Shown here one piece after another: positions 38,040-45,459 of a stretch of 64,000 bases of DNA. The position numbers and the translations under genes are program-made. The notes beneath the pieces are model-generated. The model saw nothing but the letters and a program-made list of their open reading frames with translations, made no database searches and was not told where the DNA came from. The first letter of the stretch is position 1; each line of letters begins with the position of its first letter. The stretch covers positions 246-64,245 of the forward strand of contig JASFBC010000018.1 in NCBI GenBank assembly GCA_036172315.1, written 5' to 3'. The stretch comes from Anaerolineae bacterium. Lineage in GTDB: Bacteria > Chloroflexota > Anaerolineae > B4-G1 > DUEL01.

Positions 38040-39200
38040 ATGAAACGAGCCATCTATATGGACTATTCTGCCACCACACCGGTGGACCCCCGGGTGGTGG
38101 AGGCGATGGCGCCCTACTGGAGCGATGTCTTCGGCAACACTTCATCGGCCCACACCTGGGGGCAGGCCGCCGCAACGGCACTGGAGCGGGCGCGGGAGCG
38201 GGCGGCCCACATCTTGGGCTGCCGCCCGTCGGAGATCGTCTTCACCGCGTCGGGGACGGAGGCGGATAATCTGGCCCTGCGCGGCATCGCCTGGGCCGCC
38301 CGTCGGGCCGGCCGGGGCAACCACATCATCACCACCCCCGTGGAACACCACGCGGTGGAAGCCACTGTGGAGCAACTCCATCGCCTCTTCGGTTTTGAGG
38401 TGACGGTTGCTCCGGTGGACGGGCACGGGCTGGTGGATCCGGAGGAGGTCCGGCGGGCTATCCGTCCCGATACTCTCCTGGTCAGCGTGATGACGGCCAG
38501 CAACGAGGTCGGCACGGTTCAACCTATACCGGAGATTGCCGCTGTCTGTCGGGAGCACGGCATCCCCCTCCACACCGACGCAGTCCAGGCCGCCGGGCGG
38601 ATGGCGCTGAACGTGGAGGAACTGGGGGTGGACCTGCTGGCCCTTTCGGCCCACAAATTCTACGGCCCCAAGGGGGTGGGCCTTCTCTACGTCCGGAGGG
38701 GGCTGGCGCTGATACCGGCCATCACTGGCGGGGGACATGAGGGGGGCCGTCGTCCCGGGACGGTCAACGTGGCCGGCATCGTCGGTATGGCGACCGCGCT
38801 GGAACTGGCGGAGGCGGCGCGGGAGGAGGAGACGGCCCGCCTGGCCCGTCTGCGAGACCGGCTGATAGCGGGCGTCCTCTCCGCCATCCCGGACGTCCGT
38901 CTGACCGGTCATCCGACCCGACGGCTCCCCCACCTGGCCAGTTTCGCCATCCGGGGCGTGGAGGGAGCCTCGGTGGTGGTCGGGCTGGACCTGGAGGGGA
39001 TTGCGGCCAGTTCCGGGGCGGCCTGCGCGGAGGGGGAGGCCCGCCCATCTCCGGTGCTGGAGGCCATGGGATTGCCGCCGGACTGGGCCGTGGGGGCGCT
39101 GCGCCTCTCCCTGGGTCGGTACAACACTGAAGAGGACGTGAATGCTGTTCTGGAGGTCCTCCCGCGCGTGGTGGCCCGGCTGCGGGAGGAGCCCTCGTGA
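38040..39200 (+). CDS. iscS: Cysteine desulfurase (IscS/NifS class)
   Basis: IYMDYSATTPVDPRVVEAM...SAHKFYGPKGVG (PLP Lys)...SSGAACAEGE (catalytic Cys loop). Confidence 0.85.
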   Translation: MKRAIYMDYSATTPVDPRVVEAMAPYWSDVFGNTSSAHTWGQAAATALERARERAAHILGCRPSEIVFTASGTEADNLALRGIAWAARRAGRGNHIITTPVEHHAVEATVEQLHRLFGFEVTVAPVDGHGLVDPEEVRRAIRPDTLLVSVMTASNEVGTVQPIPEIAAVCREHGIPLHTDAVQAAGRMALNVEELGVDLLALSAHKFYGPKGVGLLYVRRGLALIPAITGGGHEGGRRPGTVNVAGIVGMATALELAEAAREEETARLARLRDRLIAGVLSAIPDVRLTGHPTRRLPHLASFAIRGVEGASVVVGLDLEGIAASSGAACAEGEARPSPVLEAMGLPPDWAVGALRLSLGRYNTEEDVNAVLEVLPRVVARLREEPS

Positions 39201-39269
39201 GAGGTCGGCAGGACGTGGATTTCGCAGAGGTAGGGTGGAAGTACGGAAAAGACAAGGAGGATAGAGAAT

Positions 39270-40067
39270 CTGGAGGACCTGGAAGCGCTGGAGCAGGTTT
39301 TTCGGAAATATCCGGACATCCGGGCCGTCTACCTTTTCGGGTCGGCTGCGGAGGGACGGGAAGGGCCCGAGAGCGACCTGGACCTGGCGGTAGTCCCTCG
39401 CTCTCCGGCCGCTCGTGCCCATCGCCTGGACATCCTGGCCGACCTGGCCCGGGTGGGTTTCTGTAGAGTGGACCTGGTCTTTCTGGATACCGACGACATT
39501 GTCCTGAAGTATGAGGCCATTCGCCTCAATCGGACGGTGTATCAAACAGCGGATTTTGACCGGGGGGAGATGTATTCCCGCGTTGTGCGGCAGTACCTGG
39601 ACTTTTTGCCGTATCTGCGGGTACAGCGCCAGGAATACAAGCGGAGGATTGCCGATGATTCGGGTAGAGGTCATCGTAAACGGCTGGATAAACTGGGTGA
39701 ATACTTATCTATTCTGCGGAAACTGCGGGAGTATGAATGGGAGGAGTTCATTCGCGATCCCGAGCGCTATGGAAGTGCAGAACGCTTCCTCCAACTGGCG
39801 ATTGAGGCCGTTAACGACATCGGAAGCCACCTTATTGCCGCGCTGAGCCTAGGGACGGTCAACTGGTACAGCGACATCCCGGTGATTCTGGAGGAAAAAG
39901 AGTACATCCCTCCTGAACTCCGGGAGCGGTGGATTCGGATGATCGGTTTCCGGAACGTGCTGGTTCACGATTATCTGGAGGTAGACCGCCGGGTTGTCTA
40001 TGAGGTGCTCCAAAGAGGTCTAGAGGACTTGGAGGCACTGCGGAGTGTCTTTGCGCAATTTCTATGA
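39270..40067 (+). CDS. Fused minimal nucleotidyltransferase (MntA-like) / HEPN (HepT, DUF86-like) protein; start codon unresolved
   Basis: A single open frame runs from the stop at 39231 to the stop at 40067. It contains the NTase motif LFGSAAEGREGPESDLDLAV, then the HEPN Rx4HxY motif FRNVLVHDY. There is no ATG, GTG or TTG before the GTG at 39453. An AAGGAGG RBS lies at 39254-39260. The TGA overlaps the mnmA ATG (ATGA). Confidence 0.6.
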   Translation: MEDLEALEQVFRKYPDIRAVYLFGSAAEGREGPESDLDLAVVPRSPAARAHRLDILADLARVGFCRVDLVFLDTDDIVLKYEAIRLNRTVYQTADFDRGEMYSRVVRQYLDFLPYLRVQRQEYKRRIADDSGRGHRKRLDKLGEYLSILRKLREYEWEEFIRDPERYGSAERFLQLAIEAVNDIGSHLIAALSLGTVNWYSDIPVILEEKEYIPPELRERWIRMIGFRNVLVHDYLEVDRRVVYEVLQRGLEDLEALRSVFAQFL

Positions 40068-41152
40068 ACCGCCATGTTGTAGTTGCAATGAGCGGAGGGG
40101 TGGATAGCAGCGTCGCGGCCGTGCGGCTGGTGGAGCAGGGCTACCAGGTGACCGGGGTGATGCTGCGACTGTGGGCCGAGCCCGCCGCCGGTTGTCGGGA
40201 TAACCTCTGCTGCACGCCGGAGGCGGTGGCGCGCGCGCGGGACGTCGCCGCGCGGCTGGACATCCCGTTCCATGAGGTGGACATGCGGGAGCCCTTCCGC
40301 CGCGCCGTTGTGGAGACCTTCATCGCCGAATACGCTGCCGCCCGTACTCCCAACCCCTGCATCCCCTGCAATCGGGAAATCCGATTCGGGTTGCTGATGC
40401 AATGGGCCCTGGAGCACGGTGCCGACTATCTGGCGACCGGCCATTACGCCCGAGTCCGCCAGGTGGGGGACCGCTATCAACTGCTGCGGGGCCGGGACCG
40501 CACCAAAGACCAGTCCTACGTCCTGCACATCCTGACGCAGGCGCAATTAGCGCGCGTCCTTTTCCCCCTGGGCGACCTGACCAAGAAGGGGGTCCGGGAA
40601 CTGGCGCGGGCCCGGGGCCTCCCCATCGCCGACCAGCCGGAGAGCCAGGATATCTGCTTTCTGGCGGACGGGGACTACCGTCGGTTCGTCGCTGAACATA
40701 TGCCGGAGGCGGTCCGCCCTGGCCCTATTCTGGACAGGGCGGGCCGGGTACTGGGGGAGCACAGAGGGCTGATTCACTACACCATAGGCCAGCGGAAGGG
40801 CATCGGCGTGGCGGCTCCGCATCCCCTCTACGTCCTGGACATGGACCCTCAGCGCAATGCCCTGATCGTTGGACGGGCGGAGGAGTTGGGGCAATTGGAG
40901 TGCGTGGTGGCCCGGATGCACTACATTTCCGGCGAGGAGCCGCCGGGGCCTTTTGAGGCCACCGCCCAGATTCGCTACCGCCACAGGGAGGCCCCGGTGG
41001 TCGCCACGCCCCTGCCGGGAGGCCGCCTCCACGTCCGCTTCGCCGTCCCCCAGCGGGACATCACCCCGGGCCAGTACCTGGTCCTGTACGACGGCGAAGT
41101 CGTCCTGGGGGGCGGGGTAATTTGTGCGCCTTGGGAAACCGTGATACAATGA
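40064..41152 (+). CDS. mnmA: tRNA-specific 2-thiouridylase
   Basis: VVAMSGGVDSSVAAVRL PP-loop, CIPCNREIRFG, and a catalytic Cys region. Confidence 0.9.
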   Translation: MNRHVVVAMSGGVDSSVAAVRLVEQGYQVTGVMLRLWAEPAAGCRDNLCCTPEAVARARDVAARLDIPFHEVDMREPFRRAVVETFIAEYAAARTPNPCIPCNREIRFGLLMQWALEHGADYLATGHYARVRQVGDRYQLLRGRDRTKDQSYVLHILTQAQLARVLFPLGDLTKKGVRELARARGLPIADQPESQDICFLADGDYRRFVAEHMPEAVRPGPILDRAGRVLGEHRGLIHYTIGQRKGIGVAAPHPLYVLDMDPQRNALIVGRAEELGQLECVVARMHYISGEEPPGPFEATAQIRYRHREAPVVATPLPGGRLHVRFAVPQRDITPGQYLVLYDGEVVLGGGVICAPWETVIQ

Positions 41153-41290
41153 AGTCGTCTTGGGGGAGGGTGATTTGTGCGCCGGGGGAAAGCGTGATAC
41201 AATGTCTTTAAAGAAGCACATCCTGACCACCTACAGCGATGAGGAGACTTTTCTAATCGGGGAAGCGCCATCCTACTGAGAGGGAGAGCG

Positions 41291-41761
41291 ATGGGAACAA
41301 GGGGTGAAAATCCAGAAGCAATCCCCACGCCCGCCGAGGCCCGCCTGAAGCGCAACCTGATCCTGAGCCTGCTCCTCGTGGGCGCGTTTATGCTGGGTAT
41401 GATCGCCTTGCTGGTGGTGCTGGCGGTGGACGCCTATCGCTCTCCGGTCCAGCCCAGCCCGGGGGCGGCGGTCGTCTCCCTGATGCGGGATGCGGCTATC
41501 ATCCTGGTCGCCTGTGAGACCCTCCTGATCGGCATCCTGCTCATTATCCTGACGATCCAGGTGCAGGCGCTGGTGTCGCTCCTTCGGGACGAGATTCGCC
41601 CGATGTTGGAGACCCTCAACGACACCCTGGCGACCGTCCGGGGGACGACGCGGTTTGTCAGCCATCATCTCGTCTCCCCGACCATCCAGGCGGCCAGTTT
41701 TATGGCCGGCGTGCGGCGGGTGCTGAAAGAGGTCGCGGGGTTCTTTAGAGGCGCACAATGA
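41291..41761 (+). CDS. Hypothetical N-terminally membrane-anchored protein (YtxG/DUF948-like)
   Basis: GAGGGAGAG RBS. TM helices, then a helical region. Normal composition, unlike the overlapping minus-strand ORF. Confidence 0.5.
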   Translation: MGTRGENPEAIPTPAEARLKRNLILSLLLVGAFMLGMIALLVVLAVDAYRSPVQPSPGAAVVSLMRDAAIILVACETLLIGILLIILTIQVQALVSLLRDEIRPMLETLNDTLATVRGTTRFVSHHLVSPTIQAASFMAGVRRVLKEVAGFFRGAQ

Positions 41762-41796
41762 TCCGTGAAAATCCGGCGAGTTTTTCTTTCTAGGAC

Positions 41797-41984
41797 GTGA
41801 TTGAGGCCGTGGAGGCTCTGCCTCCAGATGACAGGCTTTGCTGGTGGAAATCATCCGCCAGCGGTTGGTCCAATACCGCCGTAAAGCACTGGCGGCGGAG
41901 ATTGCCGAGGCCCGTGAAGCCTACCAGCGGGGTGAGGTACGCCGGGGCACAGTGGCTGATTTAATGCAGGAACTGGCAGATTGA
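41797..41984 (+). pseudogene. Putative antitoxin of RelE/ParE pair; apparent frameshift near 41829
   Basis: A GTG-start frame gives MIEAVEALPPDDRL..., then shifts +1 into ...LLVEIIRQRLVQYRRKALAAEIAEAREAYQRGEVRRGTVADLMQELAD*. The stop overlaps the toxin TTG start. Confidence 0.4.
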
Positions 41985-42265
41985 GGACGCTGGTCTGGAG
42001 CGCAACGTTTGTACGGGCTTTCAAGCGGGCTGTCCGTCGCCAGCCGGAACTTCGGGCCAGGATTGAGCGCACCCTTCAACAATTGGCAGAGGATCCGTTT
42101 CATCCCACGCTACACAGCCACAAACTGAAGGGCGAATTGGCTGGCTCATGAGCCTGCACTGTAGATTATGACAACCGTATCCTTTTTGAGTTCGTCTAAA
42201 ACCCTGAGTCGGGGGAGGAAGAAATCCTTCTACTGACGATGGGAACCCATGACGAGGTTTACTGA
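41981..42265 (+). pseudogene. RelE/ParE-family toxin with two in-frame nonsense codons (TGA 42150-42152, TAA 42198-42200)
   Basis: (M)RTLVWSATFVRAFKRAVRRQPELRARIERTLQQLAEDPFHPTLHSHKLKGELAGS*ACTVDYDNRILFEFV*NPESGEEEILLLTMGTHDEVY* matches the RelE/ParE fold signature (HKLKG..., ...LLTMGTHDEVY). The frame is continuous but interrupted twice. Confidence 0.6.
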
Positions 42266-42297
42266 GGTATTCTCCCACAGAAACAGGAGGACTTCCC

Positions 42298-42687
42298 ATG
42301 GCAAAAGACAATGGCAGCGATGTGGTGGCCTTTCTGGCCGGATTCGTGGTCGGTGGGCTGGTGGGAGCGGCGGTGGCGCTGCTCTTCGCCCCCCAATCCG
42401 GTAAGGAGACGCGGGCTCAAATTCGGGCCAAAGGCGTGGAACTGAGCGAGAAGGCAAAGGAAGAAGCCGAACGGGCGCGCCTTCGGGCGGAGCAGGCGCT
42501 GGAAGAAGCCCGCGCCAAGGCGGAAGCGGTCGCCGCCGACCTTCGCCGCCGGGCCGAGGAGATCCAGGCCCAGGGACAGGTGGTCCTGGAGGAGGGCCGC
42601 CGGCAACTGACTGAGGTGGTGGAAGGAACCCGCAAGGCCGTCACCCGGGCCCGGGGAGGCGCCCCCGTCGAAGAGCCTTCAGCCTGA
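42298..42687 (+). CDS. YtxH-like protein (N-terminal TM + coiled-coil)
   Basis: VVAFLAGFVVGGLVGAAVALLFAPQSGKETR is the YtxH-type start. The rest is helical and charged. Confidence 0.6.
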   Translation: MAKDNGSDVVAFLAGFVVGGLVGAAVALLFAPQSGKETRAQIRAKGVELSEKAKEEAERARLRAEQALEEARAKAEAVAADLRRRAEEIQAQGQVVLEEGRRQLTEVVEGTRKAVTRARGGAPVEEPSA

Positions 42688-42811
42688 CTACTACGGCATC
42701 GGGAGCAACGGTCGGAAACCGCCGTAAGAGAGCGGAAGGGACCGCGCGCCCTACGTCCTTCGCGTTTCCTTTCCCGTTTTACGCATTCCGTTCCACCCTG
42801 CGAGGTGACCG

Positions 42812-43297
42812 ATGGAACTCCTGACCGTTCGTATCCAGAAACCGGATGACGTCAACTTCATCCTGGGAATGAGCCACTTCATCAAGACGGTGGAGGACAT
42901 CCACGAGGCACTGGTGAACACGGTGCCGGGCATCCGCTTCGGCCTGGCCTTCTGCGAGTCCTCCGGCCCGGCCCTGGTCCGCTGCAGCGGCACCGATGAG
43001 GCTATGATAGAACTGGCGAAGCGGAACGGACTGGCCATCGGTGCGGGCCACTCGTTCCTCATCTTTCTGGCCCCCGGTTTCTATCCTATTAACGTCCTCA
43101 ACGCCGTCAAAGCGGTGCCGGAGGTCTGCCGCATCTTCTGTGCCACCGCCAACTCCGCCGAGGTCATCATCGCCCAGACGGAGCAGGGACGGGCTATCCT
43201 GGGAGTGGTGGACGGTGTCAGCCCCAAAGGGGTGGAGGGACCGGAGGAGGTAGCCCACCGCAAGGAGTTCCTGAGAAAAATCGGCTACAAATTGTAG
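42812..43297 (+). CDS. Adenosine-specific-kinase-family (PF04008-like) protein
   Basis: MELLTVRIQKPDDVNFILGMSHFIKTVEDIHEAL... About 160 aa, resembling the PF04008 family from memory. The assignment is unverified. Confidence 0.4.
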   Translation: MELLTVRIQKPDDVNFILGMSHFIKTVEDIHEALVNTVPGIRFGLAFCESSGPALVRCSGTDEAMIELAKRNGLAIGAGHSFLIFLAPGFYPINVLNAVKAVPEVCRIFCATANSAEVIIAQTEQGRAILGVVDGVSPKGVEGPEEVAHRKEFLRKIGYKL

Positions 43298-43306
43298 GAG
43301 ACCGGT

Positions 43307-43792
43307 ATGCGAATTCCCCTTCCCCCTGCAGTCCGCGAAGCCTGGGGAGATAGCATCGCCGATGCCTTTATCCTCTGGCTGGAGGATTGGGGAAGCCACC
43401 TGATCCGGGAGAAGGCCGTTCCCCGGGACGAATATCGGGAGGTTCTTTCCCGCGCGGAATTCCACCAGGAAATTCAAGCCCTCCGCCAGGAGATGCTCGC
43501 CCTCCATCAAGCAACGCTGGAGCAATTAGACCGGATGCAGGAGCGGATGGACCGGCTGCAGATCCAAACGCAGGAGCGGATGGACCTGCTGCGGGTTCAG
43601 ACTCAGGAGCGGATGGACCGGATGCAGGCTCAGATCCAGGAGCGGATGGACCGGGAATTCGCAGCGGTTCATGAGCGCCTGGATCGGATGTACCACCAGA
43701 TGGTCATCCAGACCCGATGGTTGATCGGAGCCCTGCTGGGGTTCGGCACCATCATCACGGTCCTGCTGGCAATTGCCCAGTTCAAACCGTGA
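43307..43792 (+). CDS. Coiled-coil protein with 4 tandem QERMDR repeats and C-terminal TM anchor
   Basis: A 33-bp DNA repeat (x3.7) at 43538-43660 encodes QERMDRLQIQT/QERMDLLRVQT/QERMDRMQAQI/QERMDREF. C-terminal TM WLIGALLGFGTIITVLLAIA. Confidence 0.55.
   Translation: MRIPLPPAVREAWGDSIADAFILWLEDWGSHLIREKAVPRDEYREVLSRAEFHQEIQALRQEMLALHQATLEQLDRMQERMDRLQIQTQERMDLLRVQTQERMDRMQAQIQERMDREFAAVHERLDRMYHQMVIQTRWLIGALLGFGTIITVLLAIAQFKP
43538..43660 (+). repeat. 33-bp in-frame tandem repeat (x3.7) inside coiled-coil gene
   Basis: CAGGAGCGGATGGACCGG... units encode the QERMDR heptad-like repeats. Confidence 0.8.
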
Positions 43793-43802
43793 AAGGTCGG
43801 CC

Positions 43803-44531
43803 GTGGAAATCCCTTCCCTCTTCCTAGCCCTTCTGGCAGGTCTGGCATCCTTTCTCTCCCCCTGCGTCCTCCCGATGGTACCGGCCTACATCGGCTACCT
43901 GAGCGGCCGCGCCATCGCCGGAACGGATGCCGGGACTTCCGTCCGGGAGCGGTTCGCCACCTTTCTCCACGCCCTGGCCTTTGTCCTGGGCTTCTCGGCG
44001 GTCTTTGTCGCCCTGGGTGCGGCCGCTGGCGGGCTGGGCCGCCTCCTGCGCTCCGACTGGGTCCGCTGGGTCGGCGGGCTGGTGATGGTTTTCTTCGGAC
44101 TGGCGCTGATGGGGGCCATCAAACTCCCTGCCCTCTACACCGAACGGCGGCTCCACCTCCCCACCGGCTCCCGATGGGGGTACCTCTCCTCCGCCCTCGT
44201 CGGCATCTCCTTTGCCGCCGGATGGACCCCCTGCGTCGGGCCGGTGCTGGGGGCCATTCTGGCCCTGGGGGCCAGCCAGGAGACGGCCATAAAGGCCGCG
44301 CTCCTGCTGACGACTTACTCCCTCGGTCTGGGCCTCCCCTTCCTTCTGGTTGGACTGGCGGTAGATCGGATTGGCGTGGGGCTGCGGCGCCTCCACCGTT
44401 ACCTCCGCCCTATCCAGGTTGTCACCGGCGTCCTGATCCTCCTCTTTGGTGTGCTCCTTTTTATGGACTGGCTGCGGATCTTGGGCGCGTGGATGACTTC
44501 CCTGGGGCTGGGCTGGGACCTGGGGCTTTAA
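43803..44531 (+). CDS. ccdA: Cytochrome c-type biogenesis/thiol-disulfide transporter CcdA (DsbD TM domain)
   Basis: LSPCVLPMVPAYIGYLSG and the second Cys in AAGWTPCVGPVLGAIL. 6 TM. GTG start inferred. Confidence 0.8.
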   Translation: MEIPSLFLALLAGLASFLSPCVLPMVPAYIGYLSGRAIAGTDAGTSVRERFATFLHALAFVLGFSAVFVALGAAAGGLGRLLRSDWVRWVGGLVMVFFGLALMGAIKLPALYTERRLHLPTGSRWGYLSSALVGISFAAGWTPCVGPVLGAILALGASQETAIKAALLLTTYSLGLGLPFLLVGLAVDRIGVGLRRLHRYLRPIQVVTGVLILLFGVLLFMDWLRILGAWMTSLGLGWDLGL

Positions 44532-44565
44532 CGGACCGGGCTTCTACAAGAGCCCGGCCCGTTTT

Positions 44566-45459
44566 TTACCCATCTCGCTTCAATTTCCCCGTCCGTTTGG
44601 CGTATTTCTCGGCCTGGTGGAAAATCGCCAGCCCCAACGGGATGGAGACGACCCCCGCCAGGAATGCCGGCCAGAGATAAGGCCAGAGGGAGACCGTAGA
44701 TGCGCCCCGCAGGATGGCTGCTCGCATCCCTTCTAATATAAAGGTCGCCGGAGAGACCCGCGCCAGCGGCTGGATCCAGTCCGGGAGCACCTCCACCGGA
44801 TAGTAGACCCCAGAGATGAGCAGGAAAACGGCCTGCAGGACGTTGGTCATCTGCGCGCCGCGCTCCGGGAACAATAGCGGCAGCACCGACGCGACGATGC
44901 CCAGTCCGATAAAGGATAGACTCCCCGAAAGAAGCACCACCGTCGCCCCCCAGAGATTTGCCCCGCTCAGGTCCAGGTGGAAGAAGAGCACCACCACCCC
45001 CAGGATGACCAGCGTGAAGAGCAGGCTGTAGGCTACAGCGAAGGCCGTCTGTCCCGCCATATGGGTGAGCCGGGTGATGGGAGCCATCAGGGTATACTCT
45101 ATCGTTCCCTCCCATCGCTCCCAGGCGATCATCTCGCTGATGTTATCAAAGATGATGGCCAGGAAGCGCCAGACCATCGTCCCGATGAGCAGGTAGAGGA
45201 TGAGATAGTTAGTATCCACCGGCACACCGGAGATGGCCTCCATGCCGGCGCCGATGTAGGTGATGGAGAGGGTATTGGCAATGGAGTAGGCCAGCCAGAC
45301 TACTTCCCATCCCCAATAGCGGCGCACCAGGTTGAAATTCCGCTCCACGAACGCATAGGAAGCGCGGAGGGTTCGGACGAGCGTGTATCGTATACTGCTG
45401 ATCGCATATAACGCATTTTGTTTCTTGCCCATTGTGCACCGCTCCTGAACCAAAATCAC
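44566..45459 (-). CDS. ABC-2 type transporter permease
   Basis: 6-TM ABC-2 family topology. The ATPase gene lies upstream on the same strand. Confidence 0.7.
   Translation of the reverse strand: MILVQERCTMGKKQNALYAISSIRYTLVRTLRASYAFVERNFNLVRRYWGWEVVWLAYSIANTLSITYIGAGMEAISGVPVDTNYLILYLLIGTMVWRFLAIIFDNISEMIAWERWEGTIEYTLMAPITRLTHMAGQTAFAVAYSLLFTLVILGVVVLFFHLDLSGANLWGATVVLLSGSLSFIGLGIVASVLPLLFPERGAQMTNVLQAVFLLISGVYYPVEVLPDWIQPLARVSPATFILEGMRAAILRGASTVSLWPYLWPAFLAGVVSIPLGLAIFHQAEKYAKRTGKLKRDG

Follow-up and report, generated by a model that had tools for sequence, protein, structure and literature searches.

A YafQ-like toxin-antitoxin operon, very probably inactivated only recently, in the chromosome of an Anaerolineae bacterium

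Toxins of the YafQ/YoeB/RelE type are ribosome-dependent mRNA endonucleases that are held in check by an antitoxin encoded upstream. Members of this group (PF15738) with solved structures include Helicobacter pylori HP0892 (4lsy/2otr), Escherichia coli YafQ (4mmj/4q2u), Vibrio cholerae YafQ (9lew), YoeB (2a6q) and Mycobacterium tuberculosis RelK (3oei). The toxin described here resembles them in its length (about 90-94 aa), in its predicted β-α-α-β-β-β-α fold and in coming second in a two-gene operon whose stop and start codons overlap. It is also like YafQ and HP0892 in that its family carries one histidine in an HSHKLKG motif and another in a C-terminal G-T-H-D-E-V-Y motif, both of which align with HP0892. 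It differs from the group in being only 12-23% identical to any solved toxin and below the NCBIfam YafQ and RelE cut-offs, in having a partner that is not a DinJ/RelB-type ribbon-helix-helix protein, and in that the copy studied here is a pseudogene.

The decay of toxin-antitoxin (TA) modules by deletion or by accumulated nonsense mutations has been reviewed (PMC7167474), and ccdO157 of E. coli is given as an eroding module in the part of that review which cites Mine et al. 2009. Among TA copies in Photorhabdus, the toxin alone was pseudogenised in 185, both genes in 186 and the antitoxin alone in 8 (PMC13617665). The locus described here shares with these eroding chromosomal modules a conserved neighbourhood and an apparent course from a toxin nonsense mutation through the decay of both genes to deletion. 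As in those modules, toxin-only and both-gene pseudogenes are common states, and the slot has a high turnover and also takes other selfish cassettes. It differs in lying in another phylum (Chloroflexota, Thermoflexales), in belonging to another TA family, and in being known from comparative sequence alone.

We analysed a 64,000-nucleotide stretch of contig JASFBC010000018.1, referred to as the window. Bases 41758-42265 of its forward strand are very probably the remains of a chromosomal type II TA operon, with the antitoxin first, the toxin second and their stop and start codons overlapping. The pair would have been knocked out recently in the window lineage and would now consist of two non-functional pseudogenes. 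The features of the locus are as follows.

41291-41761, + strand: intact gene for a 156-aa predicted membrane protein, the upstream flank, kept in all congeners.
41758-41984, + strand: antitoxin pseudogene (76 aa in orthologs), from DNA alignment to the intact copies in L001 (3774-4004) and L010 (4061-4291).
41786-41787, + strand: point at which the antitoxin lacks 3 bp, in frame, that L001, L010 and L002 have, from DNA alignment.
41791-41793, + strand: nonsense TAG in the antitoxin at ortholog codon 13, CAG to TAG by C>T, from DNA alignment.
41830-41833, + strand: 1-bp deletion in the antitoxin, one C lost at about 41832 (GATGACCAGG in orthologs, GATGA-CAGG in the window).
41981-42265, + strand: pseudogene of a YafQ-like RelE-superfamily toxin, 94 codons, from translation, Pfam, NCBIfam, homolog search and alignment.
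42149-42151, + strand: nonsense TGA at toxin codon 57, a near-invariant Trp, TGG to TGA by G>A, from family alignment, ortholog DNA and the structural model.
42197-42199, + strand: nonsense TAA at toxin codon 73, Gln in most of the family and CAG in orthologs, from family alignment and ortholog DNA.
42298-42687, + strand: intact gene for a 129-aa YtxH-like protein, the downstream flank, kept in all congeners.

Both reading frames of the pair are destroyed. In total, three nonsense codons and two indels lie within 510 bp, rather than the two stops and one frameshift of the preliminary description. The toxin frame stops at codons 57 and 73, and the antitoxin frame is broken by a stop at codon 13 (ortholog numbering) and by the 1-bp and 3-bp deletions. 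Neither gene can now give a full-length product.

Read in one frame, 41981-42265 (+) gives LRTLVWSATFVRAFKR...ELAGS, a stop, ACTVDYDNRILFEFV, a second stop, and NPESGEEEILLLTMGTHDEVY before the natural stop TGA at 42263-42265, in agreement with the near-complete RelE/ParE-like frame from TTG 41981 that had been described. This TTG overlaps the stop of the antitoxin (TTGA). The two internal stops had been read correctly as a TGG to TGA change at a Trp consensus site and as a TAA without a change of frame, but they had been misplaced at 42150-42152 and 42198-42200; codon arithmetic and the ORF table, in which the 56-aa toxin fragment ends at 42151, give the positions listed above. In an alignment of 18 relatives with the window toxin, the first stop falls on the near-invariant Trp57 and the second on position 73, which is mostly Gln. 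The comparison that had been proposed with the family thus places both stops at conserved sense positions, and it bears out a toxin inactivated by point nonsense mutations, with W57 and Q73 replaced, the frame kept and the rest intact. The change from CAG to TAA at codon 73 required a C>T as well as a third-position G>A.

The surviving pieces of the pair, of 56, 48 and 55 aa, are all shorter than 60 aa, which fits the remark that an ORF track with such a cut-off would miss them. In an exact look-up, neither the 56-aa nor the 48-aa fragment was found in the protein collection, which suggests that gene callers skip them. A paralog search showed that neither gene has a further copy in the window. 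ORFs on the opposite strand, among them one of 96 aa at 42021-42311 (minus strand), were rejected as coding: they mirror the sense frame, their 'MSFAM' start is what the ytxH start gives when read in reverse complement, and the changes in the sense frame are overwhelmingly synonymous.

To place the toxin in a family, we used as a query its sequence with W and X put at the two stops. A search of 5.8 billion proteins matched 505, the best with 94% identity (E 1.4e-53), and nearly all relatives are exactly 94 aa long. Where their source gives a name, they are YafQ, RelE/StbE or YoeB family toxins, and among the homologs listed (the best 120 of 505) nearly all had a precomputed PF15738 assignment. 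Relatives at about 52% identity lie on cyanobacterial plasmids and are annotated as RelE/StbE toxins. The reconstructed toxin scored 30.5 bits with the Pfam YafQ_toxin profile against a cut-off of 30, a thin margin (E 4.5e-7, profile positions 2-86 of 88), and the YoeB, ParE-like and HigB-like profiles scored lower, ParE-like_toxin reaching 18.1 bits against a cut-off of 28. Both NCBIfam models stayed below their cut-offs (RelE_StbE, 26.5 against 27.9; YafQ TIGR00053, 27.9 against 87.25). The lack of a RelE/ParE-family match, which had been named as grounds for abandoning the identification, was not observed, given the E value of the best relative and PF15738 at its cut-off.

The toxin family was also found to be unusually uniform, with 80-94% amino-acid identity at 94 aa (homologs P0001-P0120) in metagenome-assembled genomes (MAGs) labelled as Thermoflexales, Acidobacteria, Synergistota, Bacillota, Bipolaricaulota/Acetothermia and Marinimicrobia. 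This suggests either very recent horizontal spread or binning noise.

The fold was modelled with AlphaFold2 on P0004, the intact syntenic ortholog of the broken window copy. The model (pLDDT 94.8) has the order β-α-α-β-β-β-α (E3-6 H8-20 H24-37 E57-60 E65-73 E80-89 H90-93), that is, the N-terminal strand, two helices, three-stranded antiparallel sheet and short C-terminal helix of a RelE-type RNase. A Foldseek search of the PDB gave YoeB, HP0892, RelK and YafQ as the best matches (E 5e-7 to 1e-4, TM 0.7-0.8 [0.71-0.79]), the named top structures being Agrobacterium tumefaciens YoeB/ParE (6n90), H. pylori HP0892/HP0894, M. tuberculosis RelK, and V. cholerae and E. coli YafQ. ParE2 and HigB structures matched more weakly (E≥1e-3), and those of ParE2 ranked under the YoeB, YafQ and RelE structures. 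The toxin therefore belongs to the YafQ/YoeB/RelE mRNA-interferase branch rather than to ParE; the earlier RelE/ParE label holds at the level of the superfamily, from both the profile and the ortholog fold, but not for the ParE branch.

Four residues, H47, K48, K50 and H90, are invariant or nearly so across the family. H47 and H90 align with two histidines of HP0892, H90 with the one in its C-terminal GSHSELF motif, and we take both to be catalytic-type residues from what is known of YafQ and HP0892. Based on the ortholog fold, the conserved residues and knowledge of the family, the intact toxin is predicted to be a 94-aa mRNA interferase of the YafQ/YoeB/RelE type. In the ortholog model, the TGA at codon 57 sits at the start of β-strand 2, ahead of all three core strands, so the 56-aa product would lack the entire β-sheet as well as the conserved C-terminal His90. 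H90 lies downstream of both stops in the window.

The toxin gene directly follows a small antitoxin gene, with the overlap TTGA in the window and L001 and GTGA in L002, and the same pairing was found in the non-syntenic contigs L002 and L003. These two non-syntenic toxin copies adjoin other HepT and MNT genes. The antitoxin was recovered in two frames by tblastn. Alignment with ortholog DNA puts its start at ATG 41758-41760, which overlaps the TGA stop of the 156-aa gene (ATGA), and not at GTG 41797 as first assigned; its natural stop is TGA 41982-41984. A switch of frame had been placed near 41829, and one C is indeed missing at about 41832, but the damage had been understated, since the TAG at 41791-41793 and the 3-bp deletion after 41786 had been overlooked. 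The 1-bp deletion shifts the last 48 codons (TTG 41838 to 41984) into the +2 frame relative to the start. These C-terminal codons form an open frame with only three missense changes.

No Pfam or NCBIfam family, DinJ and RelB included, matched the antitoxin, either as reconstructed or in its intact orthologs. The pair thus does not have the DinJ/RelB ribbon-helix-helix antitoxin of a canonical DinJ-YafQ system. The PDB lead for the antitoxin was the ParD2-type helical antitoxin 8c26_B, which has a similar length (71 aa, against 76 aa) and gives a weak end-to-end alignment over the motif '(V/I)EALppD(E/D)Q..LVE.I', but the match was not significant (E 0.57), and the antitoxin differs from ParD2 in having no Pfam or NCBIfam family even when intact. 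A scan of 41100-42800 revealed no promoter-like site, and terminator-like matches were at background level.

Comparison with related genomes, as had been proposed, showed that a syntenic Thermoflexales genome keeps both genes intact. P0004 is encoded on a 61-kb contig of this Thermoflexales MAG (JACIWQ010000003.1; loci L001/L004). The gene order in L001 is the same as in the window: cysteine desulfurase, MNT/HepT, mnmA, the 156-aa membrane protein, the 76-aa and 94-aa proteins, the YtxH-like protein, an Adenosine_kin-like protein and DsbD. The intact 76-aa antitoxin and 94-aa toxin of L001 therefore lie between the same neighbours as the broken pair. No Pfam family was found for the 156-aa membrane protein, and the last codons and stop of its gene are part of the left junction of the TA cassette.

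A scan with MnmA, using one genome per species from a collection outside which the window genome lies, identified eleven congeners with 87-91% amino-acid identity. The TA pair was present in the slot in two of the eleven, intact in L004 and with a broken toxin in L010 (Thermoflexus sp. RSWP15). In L010 the antitoxin is intact and the toxin (L010:4288-4572) carries a nonsense codon at codon 33 (Q33 to TAA, CAA to TAA by C>T). This codon arose independently of the stops in the window, and the copy shows the module at a stage at which the toxin alone is a pseudogene. All that is left of the cassette in L009 is the left junction and a possible right junction, and two more distant relatives, L015 and L085, have an empty slot of 38-97 bp. 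In a metagenome scan anchored on the YtxH-like neighbour, the matches listed included two distant relatives (L084 and L085), neither with the TA pair, and no close strain.

Other variation was observed in and around the slot. In L012 (3466-6014) the slot encodes an N6_N4 DNA methylase of 329 aa, a BglII-like endonuclease of 207 aa and a coiled-coil protein of 295 aa whose end weakly resembles NucS_C, and a restriction-modification cassette also lies between the 156-aa gene and ytxH in L084 (1277-4000). The decay of such cassettes is seen at several stages: L005 (7733-8750) has a methylase alone, L006-L008 have debris, and in L010 (3606-4064) half a methylase precedes the TA pair. The C-terminus of the 156-aa protein takes one of two forms, ...GFFRGAQ or ...GFIGGQSG, according to the cassette that abuts its gene.

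Just upstream, a second addiction-type module, of an MNT nucleotidyltransferase and a HepT (HEPN RNase), is rearranged at 39243-40067 of the window (compare L001:423-1248 and L129:1069-1893). L001 and L010 have two distinct genes that overlap, and in the window the loss of 1 bp about 20 nt downstream of the HepT ATG joins them in one frame. The nearly identical Logan contig L129 encodes a 274-aa MNT-HepT fusion that begins with ATG and contains both Pfam domains, and L014 also gives a contiguous match. The window has ACG in place of this start (SNP at 39244), and all that remains there is a 204-aa ORF from GTG 39453 without the nucleotidyltransferase motif. A tandem duplication of about 53-55 bp lies over the 3' end of mnmA at 41096-41204 of the window (copies 41109-41151 and 41162-41204, 86% identical); L001, L009 and L010 showed no such duplication. 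Between mnmA and the 156-aa gene, L001 (2360-3291) carries an extra pair of nucleotidyltransferase (163 aa) and HEPN (147 aa) genes, where the window (41153-41290) has only a 140-bp spacer. Together with the differences in MNT/HepT and in the TA pair, this means that three TA-type cassettes vary within about 3 kb around mnmA.

We polarised the substitutions in the pair with L004 and L010, and L002 was listed for reference. Changes in the window lineage comprised 36 synonymous, 7 missense and 3 nonsense, all three nonsense changes being C>T or G>A. Under neutrality, roughly two to three missense changes would be expected for each synonymous one. The ratio of 36 to 7 is far from this, which argues that most of the divergence arose under purifying selection and that the inactivation was recent. 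The locus had been called decaying, which is accurate; these counts of lineage-specific changes narrow it to recent decay. Among the three genomes, the DNA of the pair was 0.81-0.87 identical, against 0.85-0.89 for the flanking core genes, which is consistent with vertical descent from a common ancestor followed by lineage-specific loss.

Neutral drift may not be the whole story. Nonsense changes make up 3 of the 10 protein-altering substitutions, against about 5% expected (P about 0.01, or 0.07 without the stop that drew attention to the locus), an excess over neutral drift that is unproven. At this locus, at least two Thermoflexus lineages have independently lost the toxin through C>T or G>A nonsense transitions. 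Decay shaped by selection to silence the module, or by retention of the 48-codon antitoxin fragment as an anti-addiction factor directed at a toxin family that apparently moves between phyla, nevertheless seems unlikely to us.

In a more definite form, the pair would still have a partial function: the 48-codon C-terminal ORF (TTG 41838 to 41984) would be expressed and, as an orphan, could protect from addiction by incoming homologous toxins, or repeated toxin knock-outs would be positively selected. The open state of these codons with their three missense changes, the mild over-representation of nonsense codons and the independent knock-out in L010 are in its favour, as is the apparent horizontal mobility of the toxin family (85-94% identity across MAGs of several phyla, with relatives on cyanobacterial plasmids). 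However, no convincing ribosome-binding site was seen at a proper distance before TTG 41838 on reading the sequence, 41100-42800 holds no promoter-like site, recent inactivation wholly accounts for the conservation of the fragment, and the nonsense excess loses its significance when the ascertained first hit is set aside (P 0.07). We consider such a function decidedly improbable, and non-functional pseudogenes remain our reading of the pair.

A further possibility is that both genes are intact in reality and that the stops and the indel are artefacts of sequencing or assembly. The window comes from a contig of 69 kb, probably of a MAG, and single-base indels are a classic assembly fault. Bearing on this is Logan contig L129 (SRR24425660_80735, 4729 bp), which was reached through exact look-up of neighbouring window proteins. 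Compared with window 38175-42903, it has three differing bases (99.94% identity), one of which abolishes a start codon in the way an error might. Across the TA pair, however, L129 is 100% identical to the window, with every lesion present, and it differs from it at three sites elsewhere; the TA gap has no called gene in L129 either. Since all lesions are common to two separately built assemblies, an error peculiar to one of them is very unlikely as their source, although L129 and the window assembly could both go back to a single sample. Five separate lesions in 510 bp, three of them substitutions, and flanking genes that are intact and of ortholog length also speak against error. Overall, we give an artefact very little probability, and take the lesions to be real.

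Programmed recoding, by which TGA would be read as Trp or Sec, TAA and TAG suppressed and the frameshift bypassed so that full-length proteins were still made, can draw on a TGA exactly at a Trp codon and on the almost unchanged remaining sequence, but it would need a separate bypass for all three kinds of stop codon and for the -1 deletion, intact orthologs use plain TGG and CAG, seven neighbouring conserved genes end at ortholog-like lengths (five by TGA, the others by TAG and TAA), and no Rfam element, SECIS included, was found in 39000-45000 at E≤1, so that, given the stop-codon use of the neighbours and the absence of such an element, recoding is not credible and its probability is close to nil.

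We propose the following course for the inactivated pair. An ancestor of several Thermoflexus/Thermoflexales species would have had it in the slot between the gene for the 156-aa membrane protein and the ytxH-like gene, where it would have been kept under purifying selection for most of its time. When intact, the roughly 76-aa, putatively helical antitoxin would neutralise the 94-aa toxin. In the window lineage, the toxin would have received two nonsense transitions (TGG to TGA and CAG/CAA to TAA), and the antitoxin a nonsense transition (CAG to TAG), a 1-bp deletion and a 3-bp deletion. The toxin was probably hit first and the antitoxin second, because loss of the antitoxin with an active toxin is lethal; once the toxin was dead, the antitoxin would have been free to decay neutrally. 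L010 has the state that this order predicts as an intermediate. The dead pair would now be heading for deletion.

The TA pair in the window is an ordinary, recently eroded copy of a well-known kind, and its state is textbook erosion of a chromosomal TA module. The locus matters little on its own. For annotation, it should be recorded as a pseudogenised YafQ/RelE-family TA pair, with no gene calls for its fragments of 48-56 aa and without adding its toxin to any count of functional ones. The slot between the 156-aa gene and ytxH is a hot spot of turnover, where other congeners have a BglII-like restriction-modification cassette. Set beside its relatives, the locus forms part of an erosion series in a thermophilic Chloroflexota lineage, with the pair intact in L001, the toxin dead in L010, both genes dead in the window and L129, junction remnants in L009, and an empty slot in L015 and L085. 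This Thermoflexales series agrees with the models developed from Enterobacterales (PMC13617665, PMC7167474).
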